Source of the DNA: a virus
Length of the DNA stretch: 64,000 nucleotides
IMG/VR virus record: IMGVR_UViG_3300012936_000001
Location: 103,119 to 167,118 of that record
Direction: 5' to 3' (one strand)
In this document: positions 3,672 to 61,800 of the stretch, piece by piece
How the letters are laid out: each line of letters starts with the position of its first letter
How positions within the stretch are numbered: the first letter of the stretch is position 1
Made by a program: the position numbers and the translations under genes
The notes under the pieces: model-generated
What the model was told of the DNA's origin: nothing
The model's input: the letters and a program-made list of their open reading frames with translations, nothing else
Database searches by the model: none

Positions 3672-4121
3672 ATGGTTGAAATATTTTCACAGTGGATTGC
3701 GACCCATAAAGCAGTCACATCATGGTTCCATGCTGCTCACCACCTTACAAAAGGTGTTGGGTTCGGCGGGGACCATGTTAACATTTACGGAAAGATATAT
3801 ACAGAATTTCAAGAAGACTTTGATGCTATAGTTGAAAAAGGGCTTGGGTTATGTAACGATGAGACGCTAGCAGATCCTCTCACCATATTGTCATCCGCAT
3901 CCACAATGTTAGGCCAATACTTTCAGCCATCAAATTCTTGCCCAGATAAATTAGCCATCGCTGCATGTGAATTGTCAAAAAGATATGTCGATTTATTACA
4001 GCAGTTTTATACGAGGTTTGAGTCCTGTGGGCATTTAACTATGGGTCTTGACGACATGATGGCAGCCATGGCAAATCGATACGAAACGCATGTTTATCTA
4101 CTACAACAGAGAGTAAAATAA
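3672..4121 (+). CDS. Dps/ferritin-like protein
   Basis: HAAHHLTKG...DH...EDFDAIVEK ferroxidase-like pattern; helical, 149 aa. Confidence 0.7.
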   Translation: MVEIFSQWIATHKAVTSWFHAAHHLTKGVGFGGDHVNIYGKIYTEFQEDFDAIVEKGLGLCNDETLADPLTILSSASTMLGQYFQPSNSCPDKLAIAACELSKRYVDLLQQFYTRFESCGHLTMGLDDMMAAMANRYETHVYLLQQRVK

Positions 4122-4534
4122 TGAAACTTACAAAAAGACAGCTTAAGAGAATTATAAAAGAAGAGTACACACGGTTGGTAAGCGAAGGTCTTATCGCAGA
4201 GTCTTATGGGCAAGATTATCGAAACCAAAAGAAAGCTATCGGCCGCAACACTGGCTACTTTGATATGCTTTCACAAAACAGATACCGCCCCTCTCCTGAC
4301 ACAGTTTTTAACATGATAGACAAATTACATGGTAAGCCAGGCAAGACGATCGCTGCTAAGCTCGCATCTCATAGAGGAATATCGCTCGATGATCTTGAGG
4401 CCGCTTATTCAGAAGCAAAACTTGACGGTGGACCTGACGCTGGAATTATTGAGGCTGCTATCGACTATAAGAAATATGGTCTTCCAAGAACAAAAGACAC
4501 ATATGTTCCATATCAGCAAGGTGGCCCAGAATGA
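4121..4534 (+). CDS. Leader-tagged hypothetical protein (MKLTKRQLKRIIKEEY...GLIAE)
   Basis: Shares the 27-aa N-terminal leader with six other ORFs in the window. Confidence 0.85.
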   Translation: MKLTKRQLKRIIKEEYTRLVSEGLIAESYGQDYRNQKKAIGRNTGYFDMLSQNRYRPSPDTVFNMIDKLHGKPGKTIAAKLASHRGISLDDLEAAYSEAKLDGGPDAGIIEAAIDYKKYGLPRTKDTYVPYQQGGPE

Positions 4535-4791
4535 GAATAACCGAAGCAAATCTCCGAAAAGCCATTAGGAATCTGATCAAGGAATATGATGATGGCTTTG
4601 GTAACTATTATGACGGAGAAGACGCGGAGGAAGCGTCTTATGATGCTTTGTATCACAACCTAGACGGTTGGGCGAACAACAGTATGGATAAAAATTATCT
4701 GATATCTGGTTTACAATCCGGCTTTCAAAATGCAGACTATGAAACAATTGTAATGGTTGTTGAAGACTGGATTGCAGAAAACGCAGAGTAA
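4531..4791 (+). CDS. Small acidic protein with a variant leader (MRITEANLRKAIRNLIKE)
   Basis: ATGA overlap; basic leader followed by an acidic body. Confidence 0.75.
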   Translation: MRITEANLRKAIRNLIKEYDDGFGNYYDGEDAEEASYDALYHNLDGWANNSMDKNYLISGLQSGFQNADYETIVMVVEDWIAENAE

Positions 4792-4802
4792 ATATACCAA
4801 GG

Positions 4803-5627
4803 ATGAAAACAATGGGTTTGCGGCAACAGATATTATCTCGTAGCGATTATCACAGAGGATTATTGATTTTTATCGAATCAAATCCTGGCTGTACCGAAGA
4901 AGATATTTTTAATTCGCCGATAGCTAATGCACTAATTCCTATCGCGATCCGCAAGCAAGCCATAAATCTGTGGGTAGACAAATTAATTGTTGACGGTTAC
5001 ATACAAGAAAAAAATGGAAAATTGTATTCATCAAATTCCGCAGAATGGGAAGGGCATAATATAAAAACAGAAAGTAAGTTACGTCGATCGATCATTGAAT
5101 CAATTGAAAATAACACGCTTTCCCGCGACGAAGAGTTAGATCTTCTGTTCTTGATACACGACAAAAAACACGCAGCTTCGTTTGGAGAAATAATCCCGGG
5201 ACTAGAAAAGGCAATCAAACTATTTTCCAAACGTTGTAACAGTTATCTCCACCGTGGAGTGACAGGTGAAGAAGCAAGATATATAGCATCATCAGATGTT
5301 GGAGACATTATAGAGAATCCTGGATACTCATCTTTTTCCAGAAGACCAGACATCGCAAGAAAATTTGCGAAATCATACCAGACAGAAGAAATGCCAATTG
5401 TTTTAGAATTAGATAGAGGGGCGATGGCGTTTGATTATAATAGCTGGATATGGAATTTTTGGTACGGCAAAATGGGAACACAGCTTTTCTGGGACAATGA
5501 CGCCCCAGATATTATGGAGCTTGCTGAAGAAGAGCAAGAATGGATCTTACCAAGAAATTCAAAGTTTGAAATAACCAAAATAAGAAAAGCTTTCAAATGT
5601 TTAAATTTCGAGGTTAAACTTAAGTGA
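4803..5627 (+). CDS. ADP-ribosyltransferase (R-S-E clade, Alt/VIP2-like) with an internal tag
   Basis: YLHRG, YSSFS and EQEWILPRNSKFEI motifs; preceded by KTESKLRRSIIES. Confidence 0.75.
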   Translation: MKTMGLRQQILSRSDYHRGLLIFIESNPGCTEEDIFNSPIANALIPIAIRKQAINLWVDKLIVDGYIQEKNGKLYSSNSAEWEGHNIKTESKLRRSIIESIENNTLSRDEELDLLFLIHDKKHAASFGEIIPGLEKAIKLFSKRCNSYLHRGVTGEEARYIASSDVGDIIENPGYSSFSRRPDIARKFAKSYQTEEMPIVLELDRGAMAFDYNSWIWNFWYGKMGTQLFWDNDAPDIMELAEEEQEWILPRNSKFEITKIRKAFKCLNFEVKLK

Positions 5628-5634
5628 GAATAAA

Positions 5635-11492: not shown

Positions 11493-14400
11493 ATGAAACC
11501 AACAAAATTTGTCGGATTGCATGCTCACGATGGCTTTTCGACTTTCGATGGCCTTGACTATCCACAGGATCACATTGACTTTGTAAGATCCAACGGCATG
11601 AATGCAATGGCCATTACGAATCACGGGCACATGAATTCGTATGCACACGCGCAGCTTCACGTTGAAAAGATTAATAAAGCCGGAGCTAATTTCAAGTTCA
11701 TTCCAGGCTGTGAGATGTATGTTCATCCCGACTTGAATCTTTGGCAACTAGAATACGACATTCGCAAAGCGAAGAAGAAGGGCAACCTAGAAGAGGCGGC
11801 CCGCCTAGAAGAACTACGTAAAGAGATAGATCCCACCATTCAATCGTCTGGTGATGATGTCGAAGAAGTTGCAACAGAAGACGCCGGTCTAACGATCGAG
11901 AATGAAGACGAAACAAAGTCTGGAAAGTTCTTTGATCCAATCAAAAGACGTCACCACTTGGTAGTTCTTCCTCGAACCTCAACAGGGCTGCAGCGGCTTT
12001 TTCATCTAGTGTCTCGTGGATACAAGGAAGGATTTTATCGCTTTCCTCGAGTTGATTATAAGATGTTGAAAGAGGCTGCCAAAGGTGGACATATAATGGT
12101 GTCGACAGCCTGCCTAGGTGGTCCGTTGAGCTATGAAGTCTTCAAGCAGTTGGATGGAATAGAGTTCGATGACATACGCCCTGAACTTCTTGATAATCCA
12201 GAATTACGCAAAAAGATTATGCAGAACGTATCCATTGCATATAATCAGCTGGTCAATGCAATCGGAGAAGAGGGAGTAATGCTCGAACTTCAGTTCAATC
12301 GACTCGGCGCACAACATCTTGTGAATCGCGTTCTTATTGAGTTCGCTCGAGATAATGGCCTTACAGATAAACTCATCGTAACATGTGATTCACATTATTC
12401 AAAGCCTTCGCATTGGAAAGAGCGTGAGCTTTACAAAAAACTTGGATGGATGAATCACCGTGAATTCTCACCGGATTCTTTGCCGAAGTCTATCGAAGAA
12501 CTCAAGTGTGAACTGTATCCAAAGAATGCAGATCAGGTGTGGCAGTCATACAAAGATACAACGCAGGGAATGCCGTTCTATTCAGACAAGGAAGTATTCG
12601 ATGCTGTCGAACGCACTCACTATATTGCCTATGAGATGATTGGAGATATTCAGCCGGATCGCTCTCAAAAGCTTCCGTCGTATGTAATCCCAAAAGACAA
12701 GACAGCTGATCAGGCACTTATTCTTTCATGTAAAAAAGGGCTTGTTGAAAGAGGTCTGCATAAAAGTAAAGAATACATCGATCGACTTAAGTATGAACTT
12801 ACGGTCATCAAATCAAAGAACTTTTCAGAATACTTCTTGACCACCAAGGCAATTATCGACTTGGCAAGAAAGCATATGTTCGTCGGCCCCGGCCGCGGCT
12901 CTGGAGCCGGTTCACTTGTGAATTATGTACTCGGTATCACAGATGTTGATCCTATCAAGTATGGTCTTCTCTTTGAAAGATTCTTGTCTCCTGACCGAAA
13001 AGACATGCCAGACATCGATACAGACATCGGCGACCGAGATCAATTGATTACCTTGATGCGTGAAGAGTTCGGAACAGAGAACATTGTTCCTATCTCAAAC
13101 TACAATACTTTCAAACTCAAGTCATTGGTAAAAGACATATCTAGATTCTATGGCATTGAGTTCTCAAAGGTAAACAAGGTTCTATCAAGTCTAGACCGAG
13201 ATGTTCGCCAAGGGCTTCGATCGGACGGTGTAGAAGTGAATGGCCCTGTCGAAGCAAAGCTAGAGTGGGCAATAAAGTATTCTCCGGCTTTCTCAAAATT
13301 CATCGAAGATCATCCGGAGATTGCAGAACCTATTGATGTATTGTTCAAACAGAACAAGGCGCTTGGCCGACATGCAGGTGGAGTTATTGTATCAGAAAAT
13401 ATTGCAGAACGAATGCCTCTCATTCTTGCTCGTGGAGAACTACAGACTCCGTGGGTAGAAGGAGCTTCGTACAAACATCTAGAACATTTTGGTTGGGTAA
13501 AGTTTGATCTTCTCGGCCTAGAAACTCTTCGGATCATAGAAAGAACAATCGAGCTTATTCTCAAGAGAAAGAAAGGAATCAAGGATCCATCGTTCGATCA
13601 GATCAAGGATTGGTTCAATGAGAATATGGCAACGGACACTATCGACTTTGATGATCAACGAGTGTATAAAAACGTGTATCATAAAGGCAAGTGGGCTGGT
13701 ATATTTCAGTGTACTCAGGCAGGTGCCCAACAATTGTTCAAGAAGGCTCAACCGTGTTCGATTGTAGATATAGCAACGCTAACTTCTATCTATCGTCCAG
13801 GACCGCTTGGAGCAAACGTAGATAGATTGTATCTTCGCAACAAGAAGGAGTACAGTGCAACATACGGCCATCCTCTCATCGAAAAGATTCTTGAAGAGAC
13901 ATTCGGTTGCATTATCTTTCAAGAGCAGGTGATGGAGCTTGCGAACAAGGTTGCTGGTATTCCAAAAGAGGAATGTAATTCTGTACGTAAAATGATGAAG
14001 CCGCAAGGCTCATCCAAAGATGCTTTGTCAAAAGCAAAAGCACTGGAAGATAGATTCGTCGGCGGCTGTATCGAGAATGGCATCTCTAGAAAGATTGCTC
14101 AAAAGTTGTTCGATGACATTATGTTGTTCGCATCGTATGGGTTCAATAAGTCACACGCGGTTGCTTATGCGATTGATTCGTACTATTGTGCTTGGCTGAT
14201 GACATACCATGAAGAAGAATGGCTCTGTGCGTATCTCGAATCCATGGAAGGCAATCCGGACAAACGAGGAAAAGCTTTCTCCGAAGTCCAAGCTCTGGGA
14301 TATGAGATTGTTCCAATCGATATCAACTACGCTGAAAAGAACTGGACTATTCTTCCAGGAAAGAAGTTCATGCCATCGTTCCGTTCCTGCAAAGGGATTG

Positions 14401-15074
14401 GCGATACGGCGATCGATGAGATAATAGAGAATAGACCTTATCATTCTTTCAATGAGATGTTCTGGACCGATGAAGGAAAGTGGAAACTCAGCAAGTTCAA
14501 CAAGCGTGCCATAGAAAGCCTTATTCGGATCAAGGCTCTCGAGTCGATGGGCGAGATAGGCGATGGCAAACTGTTTGAGTCCTACAAACACGCGTATGAG
14601 TCGATTATACCAAATTGGAATAATATCCGAAAGTCTCTCAAGAAGAATCCACTTCAAGGCAAAGATAATTTCTACGAAGCAGTCGAGACAAATGCCGGCT
14701 GCGGTGAGTGGACTCGGATGGAAATCATCAAGAATGATATGGACCTTCTAGGATCAGTGTCCGTAGAGAAGATCGTGCCGCCTCGATACTTGAAGAGGTT
14801 CAGCCAAGAAGGATTTTTACCGGTTGATGAATATGCCGGCAGATATTTTTACTGGTTCATTGTCGTTCAAATGACTCCGAAGAAAACAAAAAACGGGAAG
14901 TCTTATCTCCGACTAAAGATTATGGGACAAAACGGCCGGCAGGAATGGATGAACGTCTGGTCCTGGAATGGAATAGACCAGATCGACCCTTATACGGTCT
15001 GTGTTGCTGAAGTCTCAGAGAATGCGTTCGGAAAGTCTTCTCGCTGGTCACGATTCGAAATATTCACAGAATAA
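11493..15074 (+). CDS. dnaE: DNA polymerase III alpha subunit
   Basis: PHP domain (LHAH..STFDG, TNHG, CDSHY), GRGSGAGS, MPDIDTD, HAGGV, KFDLLGL, YGFNKSHA. Confidence 0.97.
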   Translation: MKPTKFVGLHAHDGFSTFDGLDYPQDHIDFVRSNGMNAMAITNHGHMNSYAHAQLHVEKINKAGANFKFIPGCEMYVHPDLNLWQLEYDIRKAKKKGNLEEAARLEELRKEIDPTIQSSGDDVEEVATEDAGLTIENEDETKSGKFFDPIKRRHHLVVLPRTSTGLQRLFHLVSRGYKEGFYRFPRVDYKMLKEAAKGGHIMVSTACLGGPLSYEVFKQLDGIEFDDIRPELLDNPELRKKIMQNVSIAYNQLVNAIGEEGVMLELQFNRLGAQHLVNRVLIEFARDNGLTDKLIVTCDSHYSKPSHWKERELYKKLGWMNHREFSPDSLPKSIEELKCELYPKNADQVWQSYKDTTQGMPFYSDKEVFDAVERTHYIAYEMIGDIQPDRSQKLPSYVIPKDKTADQALILSCKKGLVERGLHKSKEYIDRLKYELTVIKSKNFSEYFLTTKAIIDLARKHMFVGPGRGSGAGSLVNYVLGITDVDPIKYGLLFERFLSPDRKDMPDIDTDIGDRDQLITLMREEFGTENIVPISNYNTFKLKSLVKDISRFYGIEFSKVNKVLSSLDRDVRQGLRSDGVEVNGPVEAKLEWAIKYSPAFSKFIEDHPEIAEPIDVLFKQNKALGRHAGGVIVSENIAERMPLILARGELQTPWVEGASYKHLEHFGWVKFDLLGLETLRIIERTIELILKRKKGIKDPSFDQIKDWFNENMATDTIDFDDQRVYKNVYHKGKWAGIFQCTQAGAQQLFKKAQPCSIVDIATLTSIYRPGPLGANVDRLYLRNKKEYSATYGHPLIEKILEETFGCIIFQEQVMELANKVAGIPKEECNSVRKMMKPQGSSKDALSKAKALEDRFVGGCIENGISRKIAQKLFDDIMLFASYGFNKSHAVAYAIDSYYCAWLMTYHEEEWLCAYLESMEGNPDKRGKAFSEVQALGYEIVPIDINYAEKNWTILPGKKFMPSFRSCKGIGDTAIDEIIENRPYHSFNEMFWTDEGKWKLSKFNKRAIESLIRIKALESMGEIGDGKLFESYKHAYESIIPNWNNIRKSLKKNPLQGKDNFYEAVETNAGCGEWTRMEIIKNDMDLLGSVSVEKIVPPRYLKRFSQEGFLPVDEYAGRYFYWFIVVQMTPKKTKNGKSYLRLKIMGQNGRQEWMNVWSWNGIDQIDPYTVCVAEVSENAFGKSSRWSRFEIFTE

Positions 15075-18314: not shown

Positions 18315-21300
18315 ATGTTACTAGATGAACTTTTAGAAAGCGTAATAATGGCAGCGCATGCATTGAACGAAAAAGATGCATCAAAAAGTCTAGACGAAGT
18401 AGAAGGAGATGAGGAGAAAGACGACTTTGGTGAATTTAATAAGTACATTGACAGAATAACAAAGAATTCAAAAAGTTTGGAAGATTTGCTCAAAAAGGAA
18501 CTCGGCGACAATGAAGGTGCTAAAAGTATCCTTTTGCCTTTTGAAACTACGCGAACACTCTTGTTAGGGACACAGGAAACGATAGCGAATCCAAAAACAG
18601 ATTTTCAAGATCCAAAAAATGAAAATGCGAAACAAATAAATAGCACTTTGCAAAATTTTATGATCAATCTTGTATCACTGCGAAGAGGGCTGGAAAGTCT
18701 AGCGGAATGGTCAAAAGGCTTAGATAAGATAGGAATTAAGGACGCACAATTTAATAAGTTGTTTGGTGTTGTTCAAAAAGAATCAATGATTCATAAATCT
18801 AGTCTTTCTTCTCTGCTATTAGAAATGAAATCACCAGAAGACTATCCTGCTGGATCTATTGCAAAAGCGATTGCAAACCTTGCCAATTTCAACGTTAATC
18901 TAAAAGACGTTTTTGACCCAGACGGAAGAGAACATAAATTAGTAATCAATTATTTTAAGAAGCTGGATGACAACATTGGCAAATTAGAAAAGACGCTAGG
19001 AAACAAAAAAGCACTTGAAAGCGAAATTGATAAATTTTTCAAAACAAGACCAGGCCAAGGTGTCATTGCAGCTGCCTGGTCCTTTGCTAAGTCAATGGTG
19101 GCATCCTTTTTTAAGCCGGCACCTATTGGCGATGGAACAATTCTTAATGCTAGGCAAGCCATGGGATCAATAGAAGAACCATCAGGCCTCTTGTTTCTTA
19201 GTCCAAAGCAGATCATAGATATAAACGAGAAGGTCAACACTGGTCTCAAGGACATGAAGAAGAATGTCTCTATCGTGCGGGACATGCTCGCATTCGGCGG
19301 AAAAGACGCAGACAGAATCCAGGCATACATCAAGGATAACGAAATAGAGGCCGACGATTATCTAGAAGATCTAGATGCAAATATAGACTGGGACAAAGAA
19401 AAAGACTACAAGAAGCTAAAAGCGGCAATGATATCGTCAGACTATTATGGAGAATCCTATCAGGTTCAAAAAAATCTAATACACAAGAACACGATGCAAA
19501 ATCTTTTGTTCGAAGACGCAGAAGAATTTGTCGATCTTTGGAATCAATTTCTCTCAAAAGGTAACAACATAACCCAGAAGACAAAGGAAGCCGGGACCCT
19601 CCTGTTTCCGAAATTATCAGATGATTATGACTGGAGTGGTGAAACCCTAAATTGGGAAAAGAAAAAAGAGCCCGACATGGCTTTTCCGCAAGGTAGCCTT
19701 TATCCCTCCTCTGACGACCCAGAATTTCGAGCGATATTGAAAAAGGTTGAGAAGAAAGAACCTCTCTCAGACGAAGACCAAAATAAATTAAAGGAATTAG
19801 TGAAGGAAGAACCATATAAAAAAGCAGATCTCGCACAGGCCTTCATCGAAGACAAAGGTAATGATATCAATAACGCAGATTTGGCCAATCAGATTGCTGA
19901 CATTATTACGTTAGGTAACGATGAAGTATTGCTGTCTGCGGTTGACGATGACAGAGAGCAGATCAACAAAACCTTAGAAGAAAAAGGAATCCCGTATGCA
20001 ATCAACGCAGAAAAGGATGATGACGGCAAACCCATTGCAATTAGATTGATAAGGGTTGAAGATAAGCCAGAGCGCGGAATAAATCTGCCCGCCGGTAAGA
20101 CAAAGGTCTCAAGGGCTGCGATGAAGGCTTTATTTCCCGATAAAGATGAGATAATCACCCAAGCACTCGCCGCGTTAGGAAATTACGAATTGATCGAATC
20201 TAATAAATTGCTGCACAGAAATTCACTAGCCCAGTTATTATCCGAAGAAAAACAATCGCTATTAAAGTACATTGTTTCTTATTATAGCAAGAACGCTATT
20301 GATCAAACCCAAAAACACTGGGAAAATACCCCGGGAGCCAAAGACGCGGCACTGAAAAGACTGAACAATATGCTAATACAAAAGAAAGATGTGCTCAAGG
20401 AAAAAGGAATTGATCTTGATGAAGAAATAGAGATTGCCGAAGAAGAGCCAGGTGAAACAACGATTACACTAGAGCCTGGTAAATACCCTGATCCAAAAAG
20501 CGCCGAGGAGGAACTTGACAGCTCACCTGTGACTGATGATCTACCAACCGCGGAAAAGAAGAAAGTAGCGTCAGTCATGGTTGGTGTATCACAGAAAGAA
20601 ACAACGCCTCAAGAAGCTAACGCTGAATTGTTTGGCACTGGCTTGGGAGTAATGACCCCCACAGGTAAACCCTTGGAGTTGGTCGAAGAGGAACCTCCTC
20701 CACCCAAGCCGAAGAAGGAAGAAGGGCAGCCGGTACCCGATGAGAAAGAAACATTTTATTATTCTTTTACACCGCTGAACACATTTAGGCCTACCAAGAC
20801 CAAAATCGCTACAGTTGAAGAAATCATAGCCAATATGAAGAACGATAGCATCGCGTCGCATATGGTTTATTTATCTGCAAAAGATGGTTGGTCTATGAAC
20901 ACTTTTGGCTCCTTTGACAACGACTGGCCTCAGGTCCTAGGAGGATCCTCGGATGCTGCCTCTGAGAAAAAAGGCGTCTCAAAACAAAAAATCAAATCCC
21001 TATTCAGCAACACTACTTCGAAATTCTACGACGACCTTGAATATAAATATACCGGCAAAGACGGCAGCAACAGCAAACGTGATATGGGCAGTTCGTTGAT
21101 GATGCATATTCCAAAAGCTATTGCTTCAGCAACCGGCCTGGAGCTGACAGAATCTCGCCTTATTCACAAGTCAAGTCTATCATCTCTTCTCAGAGAGGCT
21201 TCTGTTTTTGATAAAATATTTGATGAGTTTCATTCTAGTTTTGCTAAGAAAGCGCAAGATAAAGATGGAGGAATATTCAAAAAAGAACCATTGAAAAAAT

Positions 21301-22253
21301 TCCTAAGAGGCATTTTTGAGAAGGAAGAATTAAAATCCGTCATGAAAGACTTAGGGGTCGACGATGTTTTCTCCGGTGGAACAGATGATGAAGAACCGGA
21401 AGCAGACGTTCAACCAGTGAGTGTGCCAAAAACTGGCAGCCCAAAGGAGGATGTGGAGAAAGACCTCAACAAAGCCGGGATCCAAAATTCGAAAGAAGTT
21501 GCTAATGACCTTGATGCGGATGGAGATGGCAATATAACGTCCAAAGAAGCTGAGGATCTTGCAAAGAAAAAGGAGGACATAACCGCCAAACCTGGGGAAG
21601 ACGATTCAACTAATCTTATTGTGGAACCTTCCGCCGAACAGAAAGATTCGGGCACAAAGATAAGCAGAAAAACAGACTTGAGAGATTTCACCGAAGATGA
21701 ACAAGATACCATCGAACTGGCGCTTGCCGACATATTAGATGGAGATATTGTAACAGAATCCAGCCTACACAAACTTGGACTAGGCATTTTACTTGAAAAC
21801 AAAGCAAACGATTTTGTAGAGCTGTTATTTGATTCTGGCCTAGAAGCTGAGCAGGTTCAAACCATTATCAAGAAGATAAAAGACAACAAGGATCTTAGCG
21901 ACAAATTAAAGAAGCTCGGCATAGATATGGAAGAGACATCAGAAAAATCTATTCCAGGCGTAACTATTCGACCGAAATTTATGGACCTCATTAATAAAAA
22001 GAAAAAACAACTAGCAACCCAAGCATTCACGCGAGATCCAGAAGAGGGTGGTATAAAAGGTCTTCCTGGGGTCAATGTATTGAAGAAAATGTTCGGGGAC
22101 CCGACACAAGTTGCTAATATCGAAAAGACTTATAACTATATTGCCAAGAAAACAGTAAAGGCTCCAATCTTTCCAGAAGGAAAGCGCAGCCCCAAATCAA
22201 AACTTATTCACAAACGTAGTCTTACCGAAGCATTATTTAGTGACGATGACTAG
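18315..22253 (+). CDS. 1312-aa acidic protein with six internal linker repeats (putative virion polyprotein)
   Basis: Six copies of the motif ..[LM][IL]H[KR].S[LM]..LL.E. Confidence 0.8.
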   Translation: MLLDELLESVIMAAHALNEKDASKSLDEVEGDEEKDDFGEFNKYIDRITKNSKSLEDLLKKELGDNEGAKSILLPFETTRTLLLGTQETIANPKTDFQDPKNENAKQINSTLQNFMINLVSLRRGLESLAEWSKGLDKIGIKDAQFNKLFGVVQKESMIHKSSLSSLLLEMKSPEDYPAGSIAKAIANLANFNVNLKDVFDPDGREHKLVINYFKKLDDNIGKLEKTLGNKKALESEIDKFFKTRPGQGVIAAAWSFAKSMVASFFKPAPIGDGTILNARQAMGSIEEPSGLLFLSPKQIIDINEKVNTGLKDMKKNVSIVRDMLAFGGKDADRIQAYIKDNEIEADDYLEDLDANIDWDKEKDYKKLKAAMISSDYYGESYQVQKNLIHKNTMQNLLFEDAEEFVDLWNQFLSKGNNITQKTKEAGTLLFPKLSDDYDWSGETLNWEKKKEPDMAFPQGSLYPSSDDPEFRAILKKVEKKEPLSDEDQNKLKELVKEEPYKKADLAQAFIEDKGNDINNADLANQIADIITLGNDEVLLSAVDDDREQINKTLEEKGIPYAINAEKDDDGKPIAIRLIRVEDKPERGINLPAGKTKVSRAAMKALFPDKDEIITQALAALGNYELIESNKLLHRNSLAQLLSEEKQSLLKYIVSYYSKNAIDQTQKHWENTPGAKDAALKRLNNMLIQKKDVLKEKGIDLDEEIEIAEEEPGETTITLEPGKYPDPKSAEEELDSSPVTDDLPTAEKKKVASVMVGVSQKETTPQEANAELFGTGLGVMTPTGKPLELVEEEPPPPKPKKEEGQPVPDEKETFYYSFTPLNTFRPTKTKIATVEEIIANMKNDSIASHMVYLSAKDGWSMNTFGSFDNDWPQVLGGSSDAASEKKGVSKQKIKSLFSNTTSKFYDDLEYKYTGKDGSNSKRDMGSSLMMHIPKAIASATGLELTESRLIHKSSLSSLLREASVFDKIFDEFHSSFAKKAQDKDGGIFKKEPLKKFLRGIFEKEELKSVMKDLGVDDVFSGGTDDEEPEADVQPVSVPKTGSPKEDVEKDLNKAGIQNSKEVANDLDADGDGNITSKEAEDLAKKKEDITAKPGEDDSTNLIVEPSAEQKDSGTKISRKTDLRDFTEDEQDTIELALADILDGDIVTESSLHKLGLGILLENKANDFVELLFDSGLEAEQVQTIIKKIKDNKDLSDKLKKLGIDMEETSEKSIPGVTIRPKFMDLINKKKKQLATQAFTRDPEEGGIKGLPGVNVLKKMFGDPTQVANIEKTYNYIAKKTVKAPIFPEGKRSPKSKLIHKRSLTEALFSDDD

Positions 22254-22262: not shown

Positions 22263-22721
22263 ATGAAAAAGAAACTCACAGAAAAAAGAATCATCAACGC
22301 TATACGTAAAGTGTATCGCCAAAGACTGGCAGAAGTCGCCATAGCAGCCGGGCTAGAAGAAGCAGACATGTATGACAAAAGAGGCAACATGATTCTCTCT
22401 CAAGGATTGAAAGTTCGACACAAGGCTTCCGGATATGAATATACTGTAGACCATGTAGAGGGCGACGGAGACGGCGCAGTTATATATCTTCGGCACCCAG
22501 ACCAACCAAGATTCGAAGCAAGCGATTCAAACATGACAATATCAGAATCCGGAGTTTCCGTCGATCTATCCGGTGTAGATTTACAGAGAGTCGCTGGCAA
22601 AAAGAAAATGCCAAAGGTTCAGCTGAAAAAGAAACCAGATGCCGGAGAGTTGAAAATACCAAAGTCTTCTCTTTTGGCGGTAAGTAAAGAAGAATTCGAC
22701 AAAGCATATGAGGTAGAATAA
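22263..22721 (+). CDS. Hypothetical protein with a basic leader
   Basis: MKKKLTEKRIINAIRKVYRQRLAE; SD present. Confidence 0.75.
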   Translation: MKKKLTEKRIINAIRKVYRQRLAEVAIAAGLEEADMYDKRGNMILSQGLKVRHKASGYEYTVDHVEGDGDGAVIYLRHPDQPRFEASDSNMTISESGVSVDLSGVDLQRVAGKKKMPKVQLKKKPDAGELKIPKSSLLAVSKEEFDKAYEVE

Positions 22722-23407
22722 TGGATAGAACAATTAAAAAAATTATCAAAGAGACGTTAGCCGTGAAAGAAAAAGGCCCGATAAACGAGTCTTATGTTAC
22801 TCGAGCAAAGAAATATGATTTACCTACAGAACTATTGTCCGAAAAGAATAAGAAGGCACACCAGGAGCTCTTAGCCAACTATGTGGAATCTCTCAATGCG
22901 GTCTCTGCGAAACTAGACACTGTATCTCGAGACGATGCTAGCCTAAACCATTCTTCGATTCGTTCACTAAAAATTGATGAAACATATAATGCCAACGCTG
23001 CTTATCTTCATGCCCTTTTCTTCCAGAACATCTCAGACCTCAAGTCAGTTATCACGATGGATTCTCTTACTTTTATCAGGATCGAAAGAGATTTTGGATC
23101 TTTTGATGCGTGGCAAAAAGATTTTATTGCAACATGTCTTTCAGCTAGAAATGGATGGGGACTATTGGTATACAATATGTTCCTAGGAAGATACATGAAC
23201 GTGGTCGTAGACCTCCATTCTCTCAACGTTCCGATTGCTTCTATTCCTATCTTGATTATGGATTGTTGGGAACATTCATACTACAGAGATTATCTTAAAG
23301 ATCGCAAGACATATGTGTATGCTATGATGAAAGAAATAAATTGGGAAGTAGTAGAAAAAAGAGTCCGTAAAGCAGAAAAGATCGCCAAGATTCAGGAGAA
23401 AGGATAA
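22721..23407 (+). CDS. Fe/Mn superoxide dismutase with an N-terminal tag
   Basis: H..YV, LHALFF, IERDFGSFDAW, GWGLL, MDCWEHSYY. Confidence 0.85.
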   Translation: MDRTIKKIIKETLAVKEKGPINESYVTRAKKYDLPTELLSEKNKKAHQELLANYVESLNAVSAKLDTVSRDDASLNHSSIRSLKIDETYNANAAYLHALFFQNISDLKSVITMDSLTFIRIERDFGSFDAWQKDFIATCLSARNGWGLLVYNMFLGRYMNVVVDLHSLNVPIASIPILIMDCWEHSYYRDYLKDRKTYVYAMMKEINWEVVEKRVRKAEKIAKIQEKG

Positions 23408-27658: not shown

Positions 27659-28250
27659 GAAACTTTTTGACCTAGATAAACTAATAATGCAAGAAACAAA
27701 AAGAGCCATGGCTGGTGTCATAGAACCAGAGAGAAGGCTTCAGCAAGTTCAGGCCGAAAAAAACAAACCCTTTAAGGCAAAGGAAAAATCTAGGAAAGAT
27801 ATTAGCAAAGACAACGAGAAAGAAGGAGAGGTTGACGAAGCGGAAAAAGACGACGGTGCAAAAGTCAAAAAGTCGGCTCTTCCCGAAATTGACATGTCCG
27901 CTATTTCAGATCTTGTAGATACCATCCGAGCAGGAAAGTCTCTGAAGGACAAGAAAACTCGTGCGGATTTAAAGGCATACTATCAAAGATTAAACGAAGA
28001 TGAAAGACTGGCACTTTATGCATTTCTCTCAGGGCTTGCAGAGGTCATGACAGATCCAGAAGGGGACGCTGGACAAGATGCTGCCCATCCAGCTAAGGAT
28101 CCATATAAACTCAAGATGAGCCGATCAGCCCCGAAAGCAGATAAGAAAGCGAAGGCAAAAGGAGAAGATTCTCCCATTGTTGTCGGTGAAGCTGCAGACA
28201 AATCAAGAGAAAAAAGAATCATTCGATCCAACTTCAGAAGAAGAAGATGA
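27648..28250 (+). CDS. Hypothetical protein with basic termini
   Basis: ORF in the tagged-protein cluster. Confidence 0.7.
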   Translation: MRRKKLFDLDKLIMQETKRAMAGVIEPERRLQQVQAEKNKPFKAKEKSRKDISKDNEKEGEVDEAEKDDGAKVKKSALPEIDMSAISDLVDTIRAGKSLKDKKTRADLKAYYQRLNEDERLALYAFLSGLAEVMTDPEGDAGQDAAHPAKDPYKLKMSRSAPKADKKAKAKGEDSPIVVGEAADKSREKRIIRSNFRRRR

Positions 28251-29320
28251 AGATAACACGAAGCCAATTACGAAGAATGATCTCTCTTATCACAGAGGCA
28301 GCTGATTCTCATCGGTGCCTCGATGGCCGAATAGTTCCTAAGGATTCAAAGGATTGTTATCTGGATATCTGTGCTCGAATCGAAGATGCAGAATATATAC
28401 GAAATGGAATGTCTGGAGGCACAGCCACAAGAGCTTATTATAATGGGGTACTTGCAGACCTAAGAAAGAAAAGAAGAAGATTATCCAAGAATTTACATGA
28501 ATCTGTTGCTCAAAGAAAAAAATTACAAAAGTGGATGAGCCAGCCGAGCTGGGACACCATTTCTAGAGGAGCGAGAATCCAAAGAAAAAGAGATGCCGAT
28601 TATAAGCTTCTATTTAAAGACAAAAGAGACACTTCGTATGGCGAGCCCATAATGTGGAGAAGTGATATGGGACTAGAAGAGCCACCCGAAGACTATAAGC
28701 CGACTCTTTCGAAAGAAAAAAGAGATACATATAGAAGAGCTTCTTTTGCCCAGTCTAAAATATATGACTGGTGGCAGAAGAATGCAGACATAGAATTTTT
28801 GAAAAGTGTTCAAAAGATTCATTGGATAGGCTGGATTAATGAAAAAGCCGCAATCGGAGGATCCGAAAAGCCTAAGGGGGTAGACGGTCTCAAATTTTTT
28901 AATAGAAAATATAGAAGAGGCAAATTCCACAAAGACGCTCTTTCTACGGTCGGTTACACTGGAAGGATTCCAGCCACAATGAATGCAGTTGGAATAGTTA
29001 TCAAGAATTCTCATCCAATTTTTGCTAGCAACGATGACATATGGACAAACGAACTGTACATGGCAACCGAAGCAGATATAGAATTCTATAGCAACAGCGG
29101 GCTTCCCAAGAAGCCTTCAACCGCTATAGATCCAATGAGTGTAATTTTCGATGCGACTGATGTTAGGGGTAGGATAATTAGTGAGATAGTCATAGACAAT
29201 TGGGCTTGGGAAGAAATATATCTCGGTGCGGCTTTATCCAAGAAAGATGTTGCAAAAATAAAAAATTACTGTAGATCCGCAAACATCAACATAATTAATA
29301 ATAACTTTAAAGGATTATAG
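28247..29320 (+). CDS. Tagged multi-segment hypothetical protein
   Basis: MKITRSQLRRMISLITE leader; internal LRKKRRRLSKNLHES. Confidence 0.75.
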   Translation: MKITRSQLRRMISLITEAADSHRCLDGRIVPKDSKDCYLDICARIEDAEYIRNGMSGGTATRAYYNGVLADLRKKRRRLSKNLHESVAQRKKLQKWMSQPSWDTISRGARIQRKRDADYKLLFKDKRDTSYGEPIMWRSDMGLEEPPEDYKPTLSKEKRDTYRRASFAQSKIYDWWQKNADIEFLKSVQKIHWIGWINEKAAIGGSEKPKGVDGLKFFNRKYRRGKFHKDALSTVGYTGRIPATMNAVGIVIKNSHPIFASNDDIWTNELYMATEADIEFYSNSGLPKKPSTAIDPMSVIFDATDVRGRIISEIVIDNWAWEEIYLGAALSKKDVAKIKNYCRSANINIINNNFKGL

Positions 29321-31787: not shown

Positions 31788-32162
31788 ATGAAAATATCAA
31801 AAAGACAGCTCAAAAGAATCATCAAAGAAGAGTATTCTAAACTTAGACGTCGCGGACTAATCCGTGAGATGCATCATGATACTAGTCATCAACCATTTCA
31901 ATTCGATCGAAGTGATCCTATAGCCTGTGCAGAGTATGATGTTTTTGATAACAACTATGAAGGCTCTGTGCCTCCAGGTTGCTCCCCTCAGTGGAAAAAA
32001 GATTATGATGATGCTTTCGAGGAAATCGAAGCAGAATATGAGGAACATCTAATTCAACAAGAGCCTAGATCTTATGATGGATATGGTAGTTCAGACTATG
32101 GTTATGACGAGCCATACTATGATCCTGAGTGGGGAGATTCTCCAAAAGATAGGGAACATTAG
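31788..32162 (+). CDS. Leader-tagged acidic hypothetical protein
   Basis: MKISKRQLKRIIKEEYSKLRRRGLIRE leader. Confidence 0.85.
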   Translation: MKISKRQLKRIIKEEYSKLRRRGLIREMHHDTSHQPFQFDRSDPIACAEYDVFDNNYEGSVPPGCSPQWKKDYDDAFEEIEAEYEEHLIQQEPRSYDGYGSSDYGYDEPYYDPEWGDSPKDREH

Positions 32163-39027: not shown

Positions 39028-39058
39028 ACTTAAGCAAAGTCATTCAATCGGAGGGAAC

Positions 39059-39805: not shown

Positions 39806-39806
39806 T

Positions 39807-40766: not shown

Positions 40767-40767
40767 T

Positions 40768-41778: not shown

Positions 41779-42014
41779 GCAACGTTATATATCTAGAAAA
41801 ATACATAAAAAAAGAAGAAGAAAAAGAAGACGCTTTGGATAACTACATCGACGTTCTATCACTCTCTACAGACGAAATACTTGCCACTTTAGTTTGCCGG
41901 TTGAGAGGTGAGATTTTCAATGGACATCTTAAGACCGAGAATCTTATCTTGGAAGCAAAGGCAAGAATAAAAATGTTAGATTCTGTGTGCAATACAATAG
42001 AAAAATCCCAGTAG
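41775..42014 (+). CDS. Hypothetical protein
   Basis: ATGA overlap, SD present. Confidence 0.55.
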   Translation: MSNVIYLEKYIKKEEEKEDALDNYIDVLSLSTDEILATLVCRLRGEIFNGHLKTENLILEAKARIKMLDSVCNTIEKSQ

Positions 42015-42067
42015 ATTATTAGGAGGCAAGTACTTATTAAATAAGGGGCTTTTTTGGGAGAGAGGAA

Positions 42068-42589
42068 ATGATCTTATCGATATCATTGCAGATTTTAATT
42101 GCTTGGTTGTATGGTCATTTTCTCGAATATTTTTTACATATAGCCATGCACGATTACAAAAGATTCCCGTATCTTTTCAAGCATCATTTCGGTGGGCATC
42201 ACAAGATAGCAAAACACAACTCCATGAGAGACAACAGTTATGATGAAGTCTTTGATCGATCAAGCTTGTTCGAGATAGCCAGCATATCAATAGGTTTGTT
42301 GCTACACGCACCAATCGCTTTTTGGTTTCCTTTTGCTTACGCTACTCTGGTGATAAACTTAGCCACCTATTATTGGCTTCATAGAAAGTCGCACATTGAT
42401 ATAGAGTGGGCAAAAAAACATCTTCCATGGCACTATGATCATCACATGAACCCAAACCAACATGCGAATTGGGGGGTTAGACTTCCCATCATTGATCACA
42501 TGTTTGGAACGAGGGTGGAGAAAAAATTAACCAGAAAAGAGATAAGAGAAAAAATAAAAGAAATCAGCAAGAACCGGTGTAATGACTGA
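42068..42589 (+). CDS. Fatty acid hydroxylase/sterol desaturase superfamily membrane protein
   Basis: His boxes HIAMH, HFGGHH, HRKSH, HYDHH, then NWG..DHMFGT. Confidence 0.8.
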   Translation: MILSISLQILIAWLYGHFLEYFLHIAMHDYKRFPYLFKHHFGGHHKIAKHNSMRDNSYDEVFDRSSLFEIASISIGLLLHAPIAFWFPFAYATLVINLATYYWLHRKSHIDIEWAKKHLPWHYDHHMNPNQHANWGVRLPIIDHMFGTRVEKKLTRKEIREKIKEISKNRCND

Positions 42590-42605
42590 TTGTGTAAGCT
42601 ATATT
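42577..42605 (+). promoter_or_regulatory. Early-type promoter GTGTAA-N17-TATATT
   Basis: Exact spacing, upstream of uvsE. Confidence 0.6.
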
Positions 42606-42634
42606 AATAGAGTAACAACAATCACGGAGTAAAA

Positions 42635-43552
42635 GTGCGACAAGAAAATCTCAATCTCGGTTACGCATGTATCAACATGCACCTCGCAGAGTCAGAAAAG
42701 ATATCACCTGCTAAAACGTGCCGCAAGGCTACAATGAAAGAAAAAGGACTGCCTCATCTCGAGTTCCTCTTCGAACAAAATATTCGTAACCTGCATCGTA
42801 TTCTACAATGGAACAGCAAAAATGGATTCACGCTGTATCGCATGTCTTCTGACATGTCGCCGTGGTGCTCTGAGTACAACCTAGAAGACTTGCCAAATTG
42901 GTCAAAGCTCAAGGGTCTACTACGAGAAGCTGGCAACTTTGCCAAAGAAACCGGCCAACGTCTGTCTTTTCATCCAGGCGCTTTCACTGTCCTGGCCGGC
43001 AAAAATCAAGCCACACTCAAAAAGTCTTTGCATGAACTAGAAATTCACGGACAAATTATGGACGCACTTGGCATGCCTCGTTCGCGCTATGCGAAGATCA
43101 ACATTCATCTCGGCGGAGCGTACGGCGATAAAGATTCTGCAATCGCAAGATTTATCGACAACTACAAAAAGCTTTCTCCTGCCGTGACAACACGACTCAC
43201 GCTCGAGAACGACGACCGGCTCAACCTGTATTCCACCAAAGAATTGTTCGAAAAAGTGTGGCCACATACGCAGATCCCCATCGTCTTTGACTATCATCAC
43301 CACGACATTCATCCAGATGGCCTTTCCCGCGAGGAGGCACTGCGTCTGGCTGTCTCCACATGGGGAGATGTAAAACCAACCACTCACTATTCCGAGACAG
43401 CGCAGAAAGAAAACCCAAAAGCCCTGTTGCGCCAACACAGCAAAATGGTCGAAAATTACATCGACACATATGGTATCGACATCGACTGTGTCATCGAGGC
43501 CAAGCACAAAGAGCTGGCATGTCAAGAGTACCTCCGCCTTTGGGGAAAGTAA
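42635..43552 (+). CDS. uvsE: UV damage endonuclease
   Basis: LGYACIN, YRMSSD, RLSFHPG, LTLENDD, FDYHHH, IEAKHKE. Confidence 0.93.
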   Translation: MRQENLNLGYACINMHLAESEKISPAKTCRKATMKEKGLPHLEFLFEQNIRNLHRILQWNSKNGFTLYRMSSDMSPWCSEYNLEDLPNWSKLKGLLREAGNFAKETGQRLSFHPGAFTVLAGKNQATLKKSLHELEIHGQIMDALGMPRSRYAKINIHLGGAYGDKDSAIARFIDNYKKLSPAVTTRLTLENDDRLNLYSTKELFEKVWPHTQIPIVFDYHHHDIHPDGLSREEALRLAVSTWGDVKPTTHYSETAQKENPKALLRQHSKMVENYIDTYGIDIDCVIEAKHKELACQEYLRLWGK

Positions 43553-45387: not shown

Positions 45388-45852
45388 ATGGATAAAAGAA
45401 AAATTAAATCTATCATTAAGGAATCAATCAGAACCGTTCTCAAAGAGTCAAACCAGCAGTTGCCTTGGTTTATATCTGAATTTATTGAAGACTTTTCAGT
45501 TTATTTTGACGCCACAGAGGTGCGAGATCCCAAAAATATAAAACGGTTCAAAGTGCAATTCATAGGAGGCAAAAGATATAACGGATATAAATTTACCAAA
45601 ATACGAGTTCTTTTTACCGGTGGAGTGTCAACCTGGGCAGAAGACCTTAATCCTCATGAAGCATATCAAATGGTATATTCGTTGCCGGCTAGACGTATAC
45701 TACCTTCAAAACAATCTACAAGCGATAAAAACATACGATTGTCTTATGACCTTCTTGAAAAATATACAGAACAATGCAATGCGCTTGGAATTGAAGTAAT
45801 TCCATCGTGGGATAGAAAATATAGCCGAGCTCCATTCGCAGTACATTACTAG
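45388..45852 (+). CDS. Tagged hypothetical protein (MDKRKIKSIIKESIRTVLKE)
   Basis: Variant leader; ATAATTA upstream. Confidence 0.75.
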   Translation: MDKRKIKSIIKESIRTVLKESNQQLPWFISEFIEDFSVYFDATEVRDPKNIKRFKVQFIGGKRYNGYKFTKIRVLFTGGVSTWAEDLNPHEAYQMVYSLPARRILPSKQSTSDKNIRLSYDLLEKYTEQCNALGIEVIPSWDRKYSRAPFAVHY

Positions 45853-59058: not shown

Positions 59059-59793
59059 ATGAGACTAACAAAAAGACAACTGAAAAGAATAATCAGAGAA
59101 GAGTATTCAAGGCTCAGAAGTCGTGGCTTGATCAAAGAAATGTATGAAGAATATTATCCCGAAGACGAATTCGATGCTTATGAACACGTAGAAAATACTA
59201 TGGGTGACGGGTCTCCCGATGCTCCAGGCATGTATGATGGTCTTACCGAAGATCAAATTGATCAGGTCCTTGATGTTCTTGACGAGATGAGAGAAGAAGA
59301 GGAAAGACGTCACGGGTACAGGGATGAGATGATGGACTATGACCCATCCCCTATGACGAACTATGATTCTTTCGGCTTTGCAACCTCAAGACCAGGTGGT
59401 CACATGGGCGAAAGCCGAAGAAGGAGAAGAACTCTGCGAGAAAGCATCGGGTCTACAGTTCTTGTAGAGATAGAAGAACTTCTTCTCGATGAACTCGGAG
59501 ATGACATTGATGCAAAGATATCAATGGCCAAGGCAGTTGCGCTTATAAAATCAAATATGCCGTATGTAATGAAAGGACAATCGGCAAAGGACATTGAGGA
59601 TTTTATATATAGTCACAACGATTTTTACCATGACATCGTAATAGACCCAATTTCTCGATCGGTTATGTTAAAACAAATATTTGATGACGACGATGAAACA
59701 ATTAGTTCACCCTATCATTACTCAGATTCACCTATACACCGCGGAAGCGTCGGAGTCAAAGCTGGCCGCAATCCTTTCCCGGGAGAATACTAA
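59059..59793 (+). CDS. Leader-tagged array gene 1
   Basis: MRLTKRQLKRIIREEYSRLRSRGLIKE. Confidence 0.88.
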   Translation: MRLTKRQLKRIIREEYSRLRSRGLIKEMYEEYYPEDEFDAYEHVENTMGDGSPDAPGMYDGLTEDQIDQVLDVLDEMREEEERRHGYRDEMMDYDPSPMTNYDSFGFATSRPGGHMGESRRRRRTLRESIGSTVLVEIEELLLDELGDDIDAKISMAKAVALIKSNMPYVMKGQSAKDIEDFIYSHNDFYHDIVIDPISRSVMLKQIFDDDDETISSPYHYSDSPIHRGSVGVKAGRNPFPGEY

Positions 59794-59794
59794 G

Positions 59795-60208
59795 ATGAGA
59801 ATCACAAAAAGACAACTCAAAAGAATCATCCGGGAAGAATACCAAAACTTAAGAGAGAAAGGCCTTATCAGTGAGATGAGCCGAAGGCCTCGTCCTTCCA
59901 ATGTTGACCGTCAGGCAATGTATAGTGGATACGGTGGGCCACCCGCTGTCTTCAATGCTCTTTCTATGGCCATAGCAAAAGTCATGAACATGAAAGGAGG
60001 AATGTGGATTCAAAAGAAAAGAAATCCTCTCCGAAGTCTCAAGAATGCTGTAAATACTATTATGATTAAGGATCCTGTTGTCTCCGACGAGTATTTTGAA
60101 ATTAGAGATAACCCCGCCTATGACTTTGGTCTACAAGAAATCATCGATCAATTGGTCATGGATGAAAGGGAAATAAAAAGAATCATATTGGACGTCGTAT
60201 TATCCTAG
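59795..60208 (+). CDS. Leader-tagged array gene 2
   Basis: MRITKRQLKRIIREEYQNLREKGLISE; true start is 59795 after GGAGAA. Confidence 0.88.
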   Translation: MRITKRQLKRIIREEYQNLREKGLISEMSRRPRPSNVDRQAMYSGYGGPPAVFNALSMAIAKVMNMKGGMWIQKKRNPLRSLKNAVNTIMIKDPVVSDEYFEIRDNPAYDFGLQEIIDQLVMDEREIKRIILDVVLS

Positions 60209-60218
60209 GAGCAAATAC

Positions 60219-60623
60219 ATGAAAATCACAAAAAGACAATTAAAAAGAATTATCAGAGAAGAATACTCTAGACTTAAACGAAGAGGCTTGATCAAAGAAA
60301 GTTTCGGGATGATGGATTCATATGGAAACCCAGACGAATACATCACAAACATGGAGATGGGCATAGGTTATTCCGATGCCGAAGAGATGCAAATAGACGA
60401 CTTGGACAAGATATTTGATGCCGTTGCAGACATTCAACGAAAAAATTTCAACTATGAAGATCTTGCGATGGCACCAGATGAAGTCATTCAACGTCTAATC
60501 ATGGAGTCAGAGCCTATTTTCGAATTGGCAATGGAAGCAACATACGGAGAGGGTTATGATCAATCTCCACTTTCCGATAGATGGCGGGGTTTTCTTATAG
60601 CTCTACTTTCTATGGGCCGATAA
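60219..60623 (+). CDS. Leader-tagged array gene 3
   Basis: MKITKRQLKRIIREEYSRLKRRGLIKE. Confidence 0.88.
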   Translation: MKITKRQLKRIIREEYSRLKRRGLIKESFGMMDSYGNPDEYITNMEMGIGYSDAEEMQIDDLDKIFDAVADIQRKNFNYEDLAMAPDEVIQRLIMESEPIFELAMEATYGEGYDQSPLSDRWRGFLIALLSMGR

Positions 60624-60643
60624 CAATTTATTTTGAGAAAAAA

Positions 60644-61132
60644 ATGAGAATAACAAAAAGACAATTAAAAAGAATTATTAGAGAAGAGTATTCTAGACTC
60701 AAACGAAGAGGGCTTATTCGCGAGATGAGAGGCGGAGGGCACTATGATTCAATAATGAGTGCTAACCCAGAATTTGAACTGGACCCTGGAGAGTTGCAAT
60801 CAAAAATGGCTCAGGCCCCCATGAAAGCTCGTAAATTAGCATCTGATCCAAGGATCCAAGCTGCGGAAGGAATGTTGGCACAACACGAACTCGGAGGACG
60901 GTTGATGCCTTTGCTCGACCAACTTTTGGAATCAGGCATTGTAACAGGTGATGACCAAATGACAGAAGCATTGTGTGAGATTCTTGGAGAGGCCGGCCTC
61001 AGTACGACTGTATATAATTATAGTTATGATGACCCATACGGCCCTTTTATTTCTGGACATAATATAGTTTGGATAAAACTTTCTGGAAACCAGGCTCTTG
61101 TCATGATCGACGATTATCGCGGACCTAGATAA
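60644..61132 (+). CDS. Leader-tagged array gene 4
   Basis: MRITKRQLKRIIREEYSRLKRRGLIRE. Confidence 0.88.
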   Translation: MRITKRQLKRIIREEYSRLKRRGLIREMRGGGHYDSIMSANPEFELDPGELQSKMAQAPMKARKLASDPRIQAAEGMLAQHELGGRLMPLLDQLLESGIVTGDDQMTEALCEILGEAGLSTTVYNYSYDDPYGPFISGHNIVWIKLSGNQALVMIDDYRGPR

Positions 61133-61155
61133 CAACAACTTAATTGGAGAAAAAA

Positions 61156-61800
61156 ATGAGAATATCAAAAAGACAACTTAAAAGAATAATCAGAGAAGAG
61201 TATTCGAAATTGAAGAGAAGAGGCCTTCTCCGTGAGATGGCCGGTGGACGACTGCGAGTAGGGACGAAGATTGGAAAAAACCATATTGGCCCGTCTGCAG
61301 CTGAATTTCCTGGGCTTCATACAATCGGCGAGCTCATGCACGGAAACTCTGTTGATGGAACCGGTTTTTATATCGCGCAGGATGATGAGGGAAATTATTA
61401 TCTGCCAGATCAGTATGGAGATGAGCCCTTTGGAGATGAGATCGAAGACATCCTATATTCAATGGTTCCTTCGAGAAAGAAAAAGAAAAAGCTGAAGAAA
61501 AAAGGCAAGAAAGCTATGAGAGGCCGTTCCTCGATGAGAGCGCCAATGGACCTCGGAAGGCACTATGTTGCTCCTGCAGATCCTGATGATGCGCAAGAGG
61601 CTATGGAACTTGCCATGGAATTTGGAATACCAAGTCCTCAAGTCGTTGGTCAAGTTGGTGGATACGGCAGCACGTATGTTATCCTAACTGATGGAATGGG
61701 TAAATATTATCTTCCTTTGACGGCAACAGAAGACGACGATCTTAGCGTTCAAGAACTTATTGAAATGCTCGACGATGCCAAATCCGAGGGCGATCTTTAA
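61156..61800 (+). CDS. Leader-tagged array gene 5
   Basis: MRISKRQLKRIIREEYSKLKRRGLLRE. Confidence 0.88.
   Translation: MRISKRQLKRIIREEYSKLKRRGLLREMAGGRLRVGTKIGKNHIGPSAAEFPGLHTIGELMHGNSVDGTGFYIAQDDEGNYYLPDQYGDEPFGDEIEDILYSMVPSRKKKKKLKKKGKKAMRGRSSMRAPMDLGRHYVAPADPDDAQEAMELAMEFGIPSPQVVGQVGGYGSTYVILTDGMGKYYLPLTATEDDDLSVQELIEMLDDAKSEGDL

Follow-up and report, generated by a model that had tools for sequence, protein, structure and literature searches.

In a stretch of viral DNA of 64,000 nucleotides (nt), referred to here as the window, seven open reading frames (ORFs) begin with the same leader of 27 amino acids (aa) and have nothing in common behind it. The question raised by this locus is what such a leader is for. 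The window makes up the final 64 kb of an IMG/VR contig of 167,118 bp (record IMGVR_UViG_3300012936_000001, positions 103119-167118; CheckV completeness estimate 62%), which belongs to an uncultured marine T4-like jumbo phage with nearly all of its genes on the + strand. Coordinates marked "genome" are those of the whole 167-kb contig, and the head module sits upstream of the window. By analogy with the internal proteins of T4, the leader is probably a capsid-targeting propeptide that is removed after a glutamate (Glu), and we infer that the tagged proteins would be packaged, cleaved and injected.

A leader peptide shared by unrelated proteins

The consensus M[KR][IL][TS]KRQLKRII[KR]EEY..L...GL[IL].E opens the seven ORFs listed here, with 16 of the 27 positions invariant among them (pI, isoelectric point).

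4121..4534, + strand, putative cargo gene with the full 27-aa leader (4121-4201) and a 110-aa basic payload, pI 8.8
31788..32162, + strand, putative cargo gene with the full 27-aa leader and a 97-aa acidic payload, pI 4.1
59059..59793, + strand, gene 1 of a tandem array of five, full leader, 217-aa acidic payload
59795..60208, + strand, tandem-array gene 2, full leader, 110-aa basic payload, pI 9.3
60219..60623, + strand, tandem-array gene 3, full leader, 107-aa acidic payload
60644..61132, + strand, tandem-array gene 4, full leader, 135-aa acidic payload
61156..61800, + strand, tandem-array gene 5, full leader, 187-aa acidic payload

For array gene 4, the start at 60644 was chosen over an in-frame ATG at 60581. 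The gene at 4121 overlaps the stop of a Dps-like gene (3672-4121). Past residue 27, no similarity among the seven payloads was detected by blastp (best E 0.5), confirming for all seven the original prediction of a common leader followed by divergence. When the six frames of the 167-kb genome were scanned with a profile of the leader, the only matches were seven full ones, each at the N-terminus of an ORF (E 1e-17 to 1e-19), and two half-length leaders, at genome 53385 (MKITKRQLRRIIKE) and 52540, which lie upstream of the window. The tagged genes in this partial genome thus total 9. Neither the leader nor the seven payloads were covered by any family in Pfam, PHROGs or NCBIfam, and a full-text literature search found KRQLKRII in no paper. 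Replication and metabolic genes had been predicted to carry no tag, and this holds for ribonucleotide reductase (RNR), DnaE, the methylases, ThyX, Fpg, dUTPase, dCMP deaminase, GroEL, UvdE and the deformylase.

The conservation of the leader was compared at the codon level. Identity among the seven leaders was 85% at second and 57% at third codon positions, with a nonsynonymous divergence (dN) of 0.20 and a synonymous divergence (dS) of about 1.6, the latter saturated in 6 of the 21 pairs. Sequences flanking the leaders, 60 nt upstream and 81 nt downstream, were at a background identity of about 30%. The low dN, the high dS and the unrelated flanks indicate that selection acts on the leader peptide. 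These values bear on another explanation, in which the shared 5′ end is an element of the DNA or RNA, such as a translation-initiation region or a handle through which cassettes are shuffled by recombination, and the peptide is incidental. Tandem cassette arrays with swapped payloads would suit such an element, as would the fused double- and triple-leader ORFs of metagenomes described below. However, it does not account for the lower identity at third positions and the saturated dS, for the unrelated 60 nt upstream, or for a peptide that is near-invariant over more than 800 clusters, and we regard it as very improbable. The idea of a DNA repeat or recombination handle was rejected because of the synonymous divergence.

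The leader was also found well outside this contig. With residues 1-40 as query, a word-seeded search matched 839 protein clusters at E <= 0.01 in the size range 73-235 aa, plus 18 clusters of longer proteins; all are metagenomic (Tara, ENA, JGI) and none is named. Across 135 full-length metagenomic leaders, no column exceeded an entropy of 1.1 bit as far as Glu27, itself invariant, and position 25 was Ile, Leu or Val. Position 28 was occupied by Ser (68%), Met or Ala; entropy was at least 3 bits from position 29. The 123 metagenomic payloads fell into 40 unrelated clusters with a median length of 87 aa and a median pI of 4.08. The payloads had been described as mostly acidic, which proved right for five of the seven in the window and for 99% of the metagenomic ones (pI below 6). 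Two metagenomic payload clusters gave winged-helix matches, both below threshold. The nearest clusters in the ESM Atlas were viral hypothetical proteins with scores of 0.81 or less, which we treat as a lead only. In five metagenomic ORFs (P0004, P0050, P0134, P0138 and P0149), two or three complete leaders were present, all beginning with Met and with a different payload behind each; these may be tandem cargo genes fused by stop loss, or natural polyproteins.

In IMG/VR, 128 leader matches were confirmed, many of them on contigs of 240-293 kb, and the related leader-bearing records span 240-305 kb. Four large relatives carried 21-29 leader ORFs each, mostly in tight tandem arrays, and the arrays hold 5 to about 20 genes with unrelated payloads. 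Such arrays suggest a fast-evolving set of presumably injected proteins. Among 596 Gb of bacterial and archaeal genomes, the single leader match was on NHDW01000006.1 (305,838 bp), a contig of the metagenome-assembled genome "Methylococcaceae bacterium TMED69", which also contains an S77 protease gene; the contig is most likely a misbinned jumbo phage genome. A tblastn search of 50,697 GenBank phages with the 29-aa leader gave no match, a result that a low-complexity filter could have produced and that is not evidence of absence. In the arrays of the relatives, three length classes of leader were built on one common core, every class ending in [LI]xE.

14-aa class, the common core: MKITKRQL[KR]RII[KR]E
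21-aa class, on that core: ...EEKxKLLxE
27-aa class, on that core: ...EEYSRLKRRGLIKE; residues 12-14 form a further I-x-E inside the leader

In the two longer forms a second helix turn is added, again closed by [LI]xE. An AlphaFold2 model of the protein encoded at 60219 (9-row alignment, mean predicted local distance difference test (pLDDT) 72) has a helix at residues 5-21. Residues 22-37, which span the predicted cut, were modelled at low confidence and with no secondary structure (28-34 below pLDDT 50), and a helical payload follows the disordered stretch. The hydrophobic moment of leader residues 4-21 was 0.68, above 99% of shuffles. Foldseek searches with the model found nothing in the PDB or BFVD at E <= 0.001. 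In the model, an amphipathic helix followed by an exposed linker has the look expected of a targeting helix with a protease site.

The same helix could also be read without any role for the capsid. In that case the leader would be retained in the mature protein and would act in the infected cell as a basic amphipathic helix, docking a nucleic acid, a membrane or a host protein, or masking the acidic payload. Its strongly basic (net charge +8) and amphipathic character and the very acidic payloads agree with this, and cleavage is predicted by analogy. A retained helix, on the other hand, leaves unexplained why Glu27 is invariant with conservation collapsing right behind it, and why all three length classes end in [LI]xE. 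For these and two further reasons given below, we consider it unlikely.

The prohead protease and its expected substrates

If the leader is a capsid-targeting propeptide, a Glu-specific prohead protease should be encoded by the same phage. A gene for a protease of the gp21 type was located in the head module.

genome 57599-59179, putative terminase, assigned by position and size only
genome 59213-61237, putative portal, assigned by position and size only
genome 62079-62684, prohead protease of the gp21 type, Peptidase_S77 (PF03420, 92.6 bits, match at 62169-62585)
genome 65212-66915, scaffold candidate, acidic, 567 aa
genome 66962-68920, Gp23-family capsid protein (PF07068, 214 bits)

The S77 protease shows 33% identity to T4 gp21, and the ELxHP and SSRGxGS motifs, which hold the catalytic His and Ser in gp21, align between the two. 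Its N-terminus, MSDLKLLTE, resembles MNEPQLLIE of T4 gp21. When the capsid N-termini were aligned, the T4 gp23 maturation site FLTE|AEIGG fell on Q[LV]LRE|AN in this phage and four relatives. Moreover, the density of [LI]xE was the highest in the whole genome in the two proteins that flank the protease gene. The 567-aa scaffold candidate has 24 such sites against 10 expected from composition, and a 279-aa head-module protein next to the protease has 14 against 4.7 expected. In T4, the core proteins are cut into pieces at many L/I-X-E sites (PMC9026906). The homology and the expected substrates make it well supported that the protease of this phage is T4-like and cuts after Glu, with P3 occupied by Leu or Ile. 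A PHROGs search of the head-module neighbours gave no match, and the label "scaffold" accordingly rests on position, composition and [LI]xE density. When a complex of the scaffold candidate (5-row alignment) and the leader (40 aa, 30-row alignment) was predicted, the score was 0.00 and the mark 0.32, and the result was counted neither way.

The leader might instead be recognised by a different phage enzyme, either a modifying maturase like those of ribosomally synthesised and post-translationally modified peptides (RiPPs), or a ClpP-like protease for which it would be a degradation tag. A gene of the ClpP family at 3028-3648 does lie just upstream of one tagged operon. No further enzyme was found to travel with the arrays, however, with the co-occurrence of ClpP not surveyed, and the S77 protease is the sole enzyme that combines a known matching specificity with presence in all 11 of the large leader-bearing records tested. 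Recognition by another enzyme is therefore improbable in our judgement. A radical-SAM maturase, as in a RiPP-like system, was considered and rejected, PF04055 being absent from this genome and from two relatives, G001 (96% complete) and G003 (100% complete). The linkage of the leader to phages with an S77 protease would also be left unexplained if the leader were retained in the mature protein.

Two other features of these genomes were noted beside the head genes. The complete 293-kb relative G003 has two adjacent gp23-type major capsid paralogues (176278-178692). In the window, a DnaE-type DNA polymerase III alpha subunit (11493-15074; PHP, NTPase, finger and HhH domains) is encoded, in a phage whose head module is of the T4 type.

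Variant leaders, a 12-residue module and a candidate late promoter

A dozen further genes had been proposed to carry variant leaders. These were graded with a short-leader profile trained only on 80 leaders from related genomes, with all 2,399 candidate + strand starts of this genome scored. Ranked first (E < 1e-7) were the seven core genes together with both upstream half-leaders, far ahead of the following genes.

28247..29320, + strand, 357-aa protein with a diverged short leader (MKITRSQLRRMISLITE), significant (19 bits, E 1.3e-4)
4531..4791, + strand, 86-aa acidic protein with a diverged leader (MRITEANLRKAIRNLIKE), significant (E 3.2e-4)
45388..45852, + strand, 154-aa protein in which two short-leader motifs overlap (..KIKSIIKE, ..IRTVLKE), significant although weak (E 0.033)
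22721..23407, + strand, Fe/Mn superoxide dismutase (Sod_Fe_C, 80 bits), borderline leader match (E 0.4)
29330-30478 and 30491-31771, + strand, adjacent genes with borderline short leaders (..LRKIILE, ..LRKLVLE; E 1.1-2.6)

The proposed dozen was thus reduced to three significant genes (28247, 4531 and 45388) and three borderline ones (22721, 29330 and 30491). The other six, at 22263, 23407, 25690, 34108, 53610 and 56838, were not recovered by the profile and stand unsupported. A short leader was also seen on a head-module gene at genome 63171, which ranked with the non-significant group (E 0.4-2.6). At its N-terminus the superoxide dismutase is extended by about 24-30 aa resembling a short leader (..IKKIIKE, ..PINE), and it could be a capsid-packed enzyme. 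It is the only payload that is a recognisable enzyme, where the original prediction had used the plural. A loose form of the motif, [LIVMF][KR][KRQNS][LIVMA][ILVM]xE, occurred 21 times in the proteome, and 15 of these were within the first 21 residues, where about 1.6 would be expected.

The core of the leader can be reduced to a 12-mer, h-x-[KR]-x-x-[LMI]-x-x-h-h-x-E, which was counted 16 times in the proteome and 1.2 +/- 1.0 times in shuffles. With a single exception, the copies fall in the leader genes, the head-module gene at 63171, the gene at 45388, or one large protein.

18315..22253, + strand, 1312-aa protein with internal copies of the leader-core 12-mer, for example LIHKSSLSSLLLE

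This protein has four strict and two looser copies, which look like [LM]IHK[SN]xLxxLLxE. Searches of Pfam and PHROGs gave nothing for it, and none of five relatives yielded a homologue at E <= 1e-5. The head protease may cut it at the 12-mer copies, which would make it a polyprotein, and we offer this only as a lead. The presence of one motif on a head-module gene and inside the 1312-aa protein is again unexplained by a helix that stays on the mature protein. Extending the capsid-targeting reading, the 12-mer may be a portable "address plus cut site" in a widespread clade of marine jumbo T4-like phages, set at the N-termini of 20-30 small acidic proteins per genome and inside giant polyproteins, and loading a large, fast-changing injected arsenal (for example DNA-mimic or counter-defence proteins). 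We put this forward tentatively, as a proposal with rather less chance of being right than wrong. If it were true, no phage has been described with an injected repertoire of such scale.

Of the 39 + strand copies of a box, ATA[ACT]TTAT, 14 lie 22-45 nt ahead of a gene start, compared with about 1 expected.

3645..3652, + strand, box ATAATTAT, candidate late promoter, 27 nt before the start at 3672
18282, 34054/34065 and 56571, further copies of the box in the window

Upstream of the window, the box stands before the scaffold candidate, before putative sheath and tube genes, and before several large genes that follow the capsid gene, such as genome 73247 and 79544, which are tail-like by position; for this reason it is a candidate late promoter. 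An exact copy also stands before genome 53385, which has a short leader, and the box precedes window genes 3672, 18315, 34108 and 56603. From 3645, a candidate late operon would run through the Dps-like gene and the tagged genes 4121 and 4531 to a gene at 4803-5627. Late expression of the tagged genes is plausible, and since it is no firmer than that for the arrays, this is a further point that a helix retained in the infected cell can accommodate.

Several genes in and around this unit deserve mention in their own right. The protein encoded at 4803-5627 gave a sub-threshold match to ADP-ribosyltransferases (22.4 bits, cut-off 23.4), which recalls the packaged Alt of T4. In metagenomes, the Dps-like gene was found fused in frame to a leader gene (P0135, P0137 and P0142). 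The ClpP-family protease gene mentioned above lies directly before the unit. Elsewhere in the window, host-like genes occupy 37374-43552, including a GroEL-type chaperonin (37374-38981), a peptide deformylase (40675-41310) and the UV endonuclease UvdE (42635-43552), and four DNA methyltransferases are encoded at 2166, 6438, 9672 and 51671.

Proposed capsid targeting and its relation to known phage systems

Taken as a capsid-targeting propeptide, the leader would work as follows. During head assembly its helix would bind the acidic scaffolding core, and the attached protein would be built into the prohead. The S77 protease would then cut after Glu27, and possibly also after Glu14, which closes another I-x-E. 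The cut would release a small, mostly acidic mature protein that remains in the head with the DNA and is delivered to the host upon infection, like IPI-III and Alt of T4. The short leaders on the head-module gene 63171 and on the exact-box gene 53385 speak for this reading.

Several observations weigh against it. Both the length and the conservation of the leader go far beyond what a gp21 site requires. In direct comparison with the T4 capsid-targeting sequence (CTS), MKTYQEFIAE, no homology was detectable, and only the initial MK and the terminal hydrophobic-x-E were shared; the tag is therefore classed here as CTS-like in its working and not as a homologue. The bare [LI]xE is frequent (1.3 per 100 residues) and shows no N-terminal enrichment in the proteome (58 genes against 45 expected), which makes the terminal motif weak evidence by itself. 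A further contrast is that the payloads are acidic and IPI-III of T4 basic. In Flavobacterium phage immuto, the nearest cultured phage by capsid protein (44% identity), an S77 protease is present and the leader was not found. The 59059 array has only one-mismatch copies of the box, and in the arrays of the relatives the box precedes only 1 of 85 genes, which leaves the argument from late expression weak. Finally, cleavage, packaging and ejection in this lineage rest on analogy.

On balance, all tests run fit a T4-style targeting and cleavage tag, and the generalised capsid-addressing code of the original prediction is partly supported. Its "library of effector enzymes" was overstated, the payloads being mostly small, acidic and of no known family. 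Given their size, acidity and diversity, the tandem arrays, and the precedent of T4 IPI*, one may speculate that the payloads are counter-defence factors.

If capsid targeting is correct, one peptide marks all head-packaged, host-delivered proteins of an abundant uncultured marine phage lineage, and more than 800 clusters of unknown function could be read from metagenomes as candidates for first-minute host takeover or counter-defence. It would also mean that the internal-protein strategy of T4 scales from three proteins to dozens per genome, and that a second, longer packaging tag is available for loading foreign proteins into T4-type capsids. The sharp boundary at the invariant Glu27 makes the proposal directly testable.

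The closest parallel is the CTS of the T4 internal proteins, which is said to have been the subject of work by Mullaney & Black in 1996 and by Repoila et al. in 1994. In both systems an N-terminal tag sits on unrelated proteins and ends in [LI]-x-Glu, with homology stopping there. Both genomes encode a gp21-type S77 protease and a capsid protein with a homologous cut site, and in both the cargo genes are polymorphic and clustered. In T-even phages, a conserved CTS is found on diverse, polymorphic internal proteins (PMC3012670, citing Repoila et al. 1994; PMC9026906). The CTS of IPI, IPII and IPIII and the propeptide of Alt are removed by the prohead protease gp21 at L/I-X-E (PMC9026906, PMC3012670), and the CTS has been proposed to serve T4-like phages generally for loading proteins of various kinds (PMC9026906). 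The differences are also clear. The T4 CTS is 10 aa long and neutral to acidic, whereas the tag described here is 14-27 aa long and strongly basic. Tagged genes number 9 in this partial genome and 21-29 per related genome, compared with 3-4 in T4. The payloads here are small and acidic, with a median pI of 4.1, and those of T4 are basic. Unlike T4, the present phage is a jumbo phage of marine origin that is uncultured, encodes a DnaE-type polymerase, and is known here from sequence alone.

A second parallel is found in phiKZ, 201phi2-1 and SPN3US, where the propeptides of inner-body or ejection proteins are cut by the gp175/gp245 proteases after S/A-X-E (PMC9026906, PMC5694885). As in that group, head-internal proteins of a large-genome phage would be processed after Glu by a distant relative of gp21, and the propeptides can hold several cut sites, as is predicted here. 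Unlike in the phiKZ group, P3 is Leu or Ile, as in T4, the protease scores as a bona fide Peptidase_S77, and the head module is T4-like; one near-invariant peptide takes the place of diverse propeptides. The principle of a CTS on diverse internal proteins has thus been known in T-even phages since the 1990s. What is new here is the tag itself, how little it varies over more than 800 clusters, how many genes bear it (21-29 per genome), how acidic the payloads are, and that it recurs inside a large protein.

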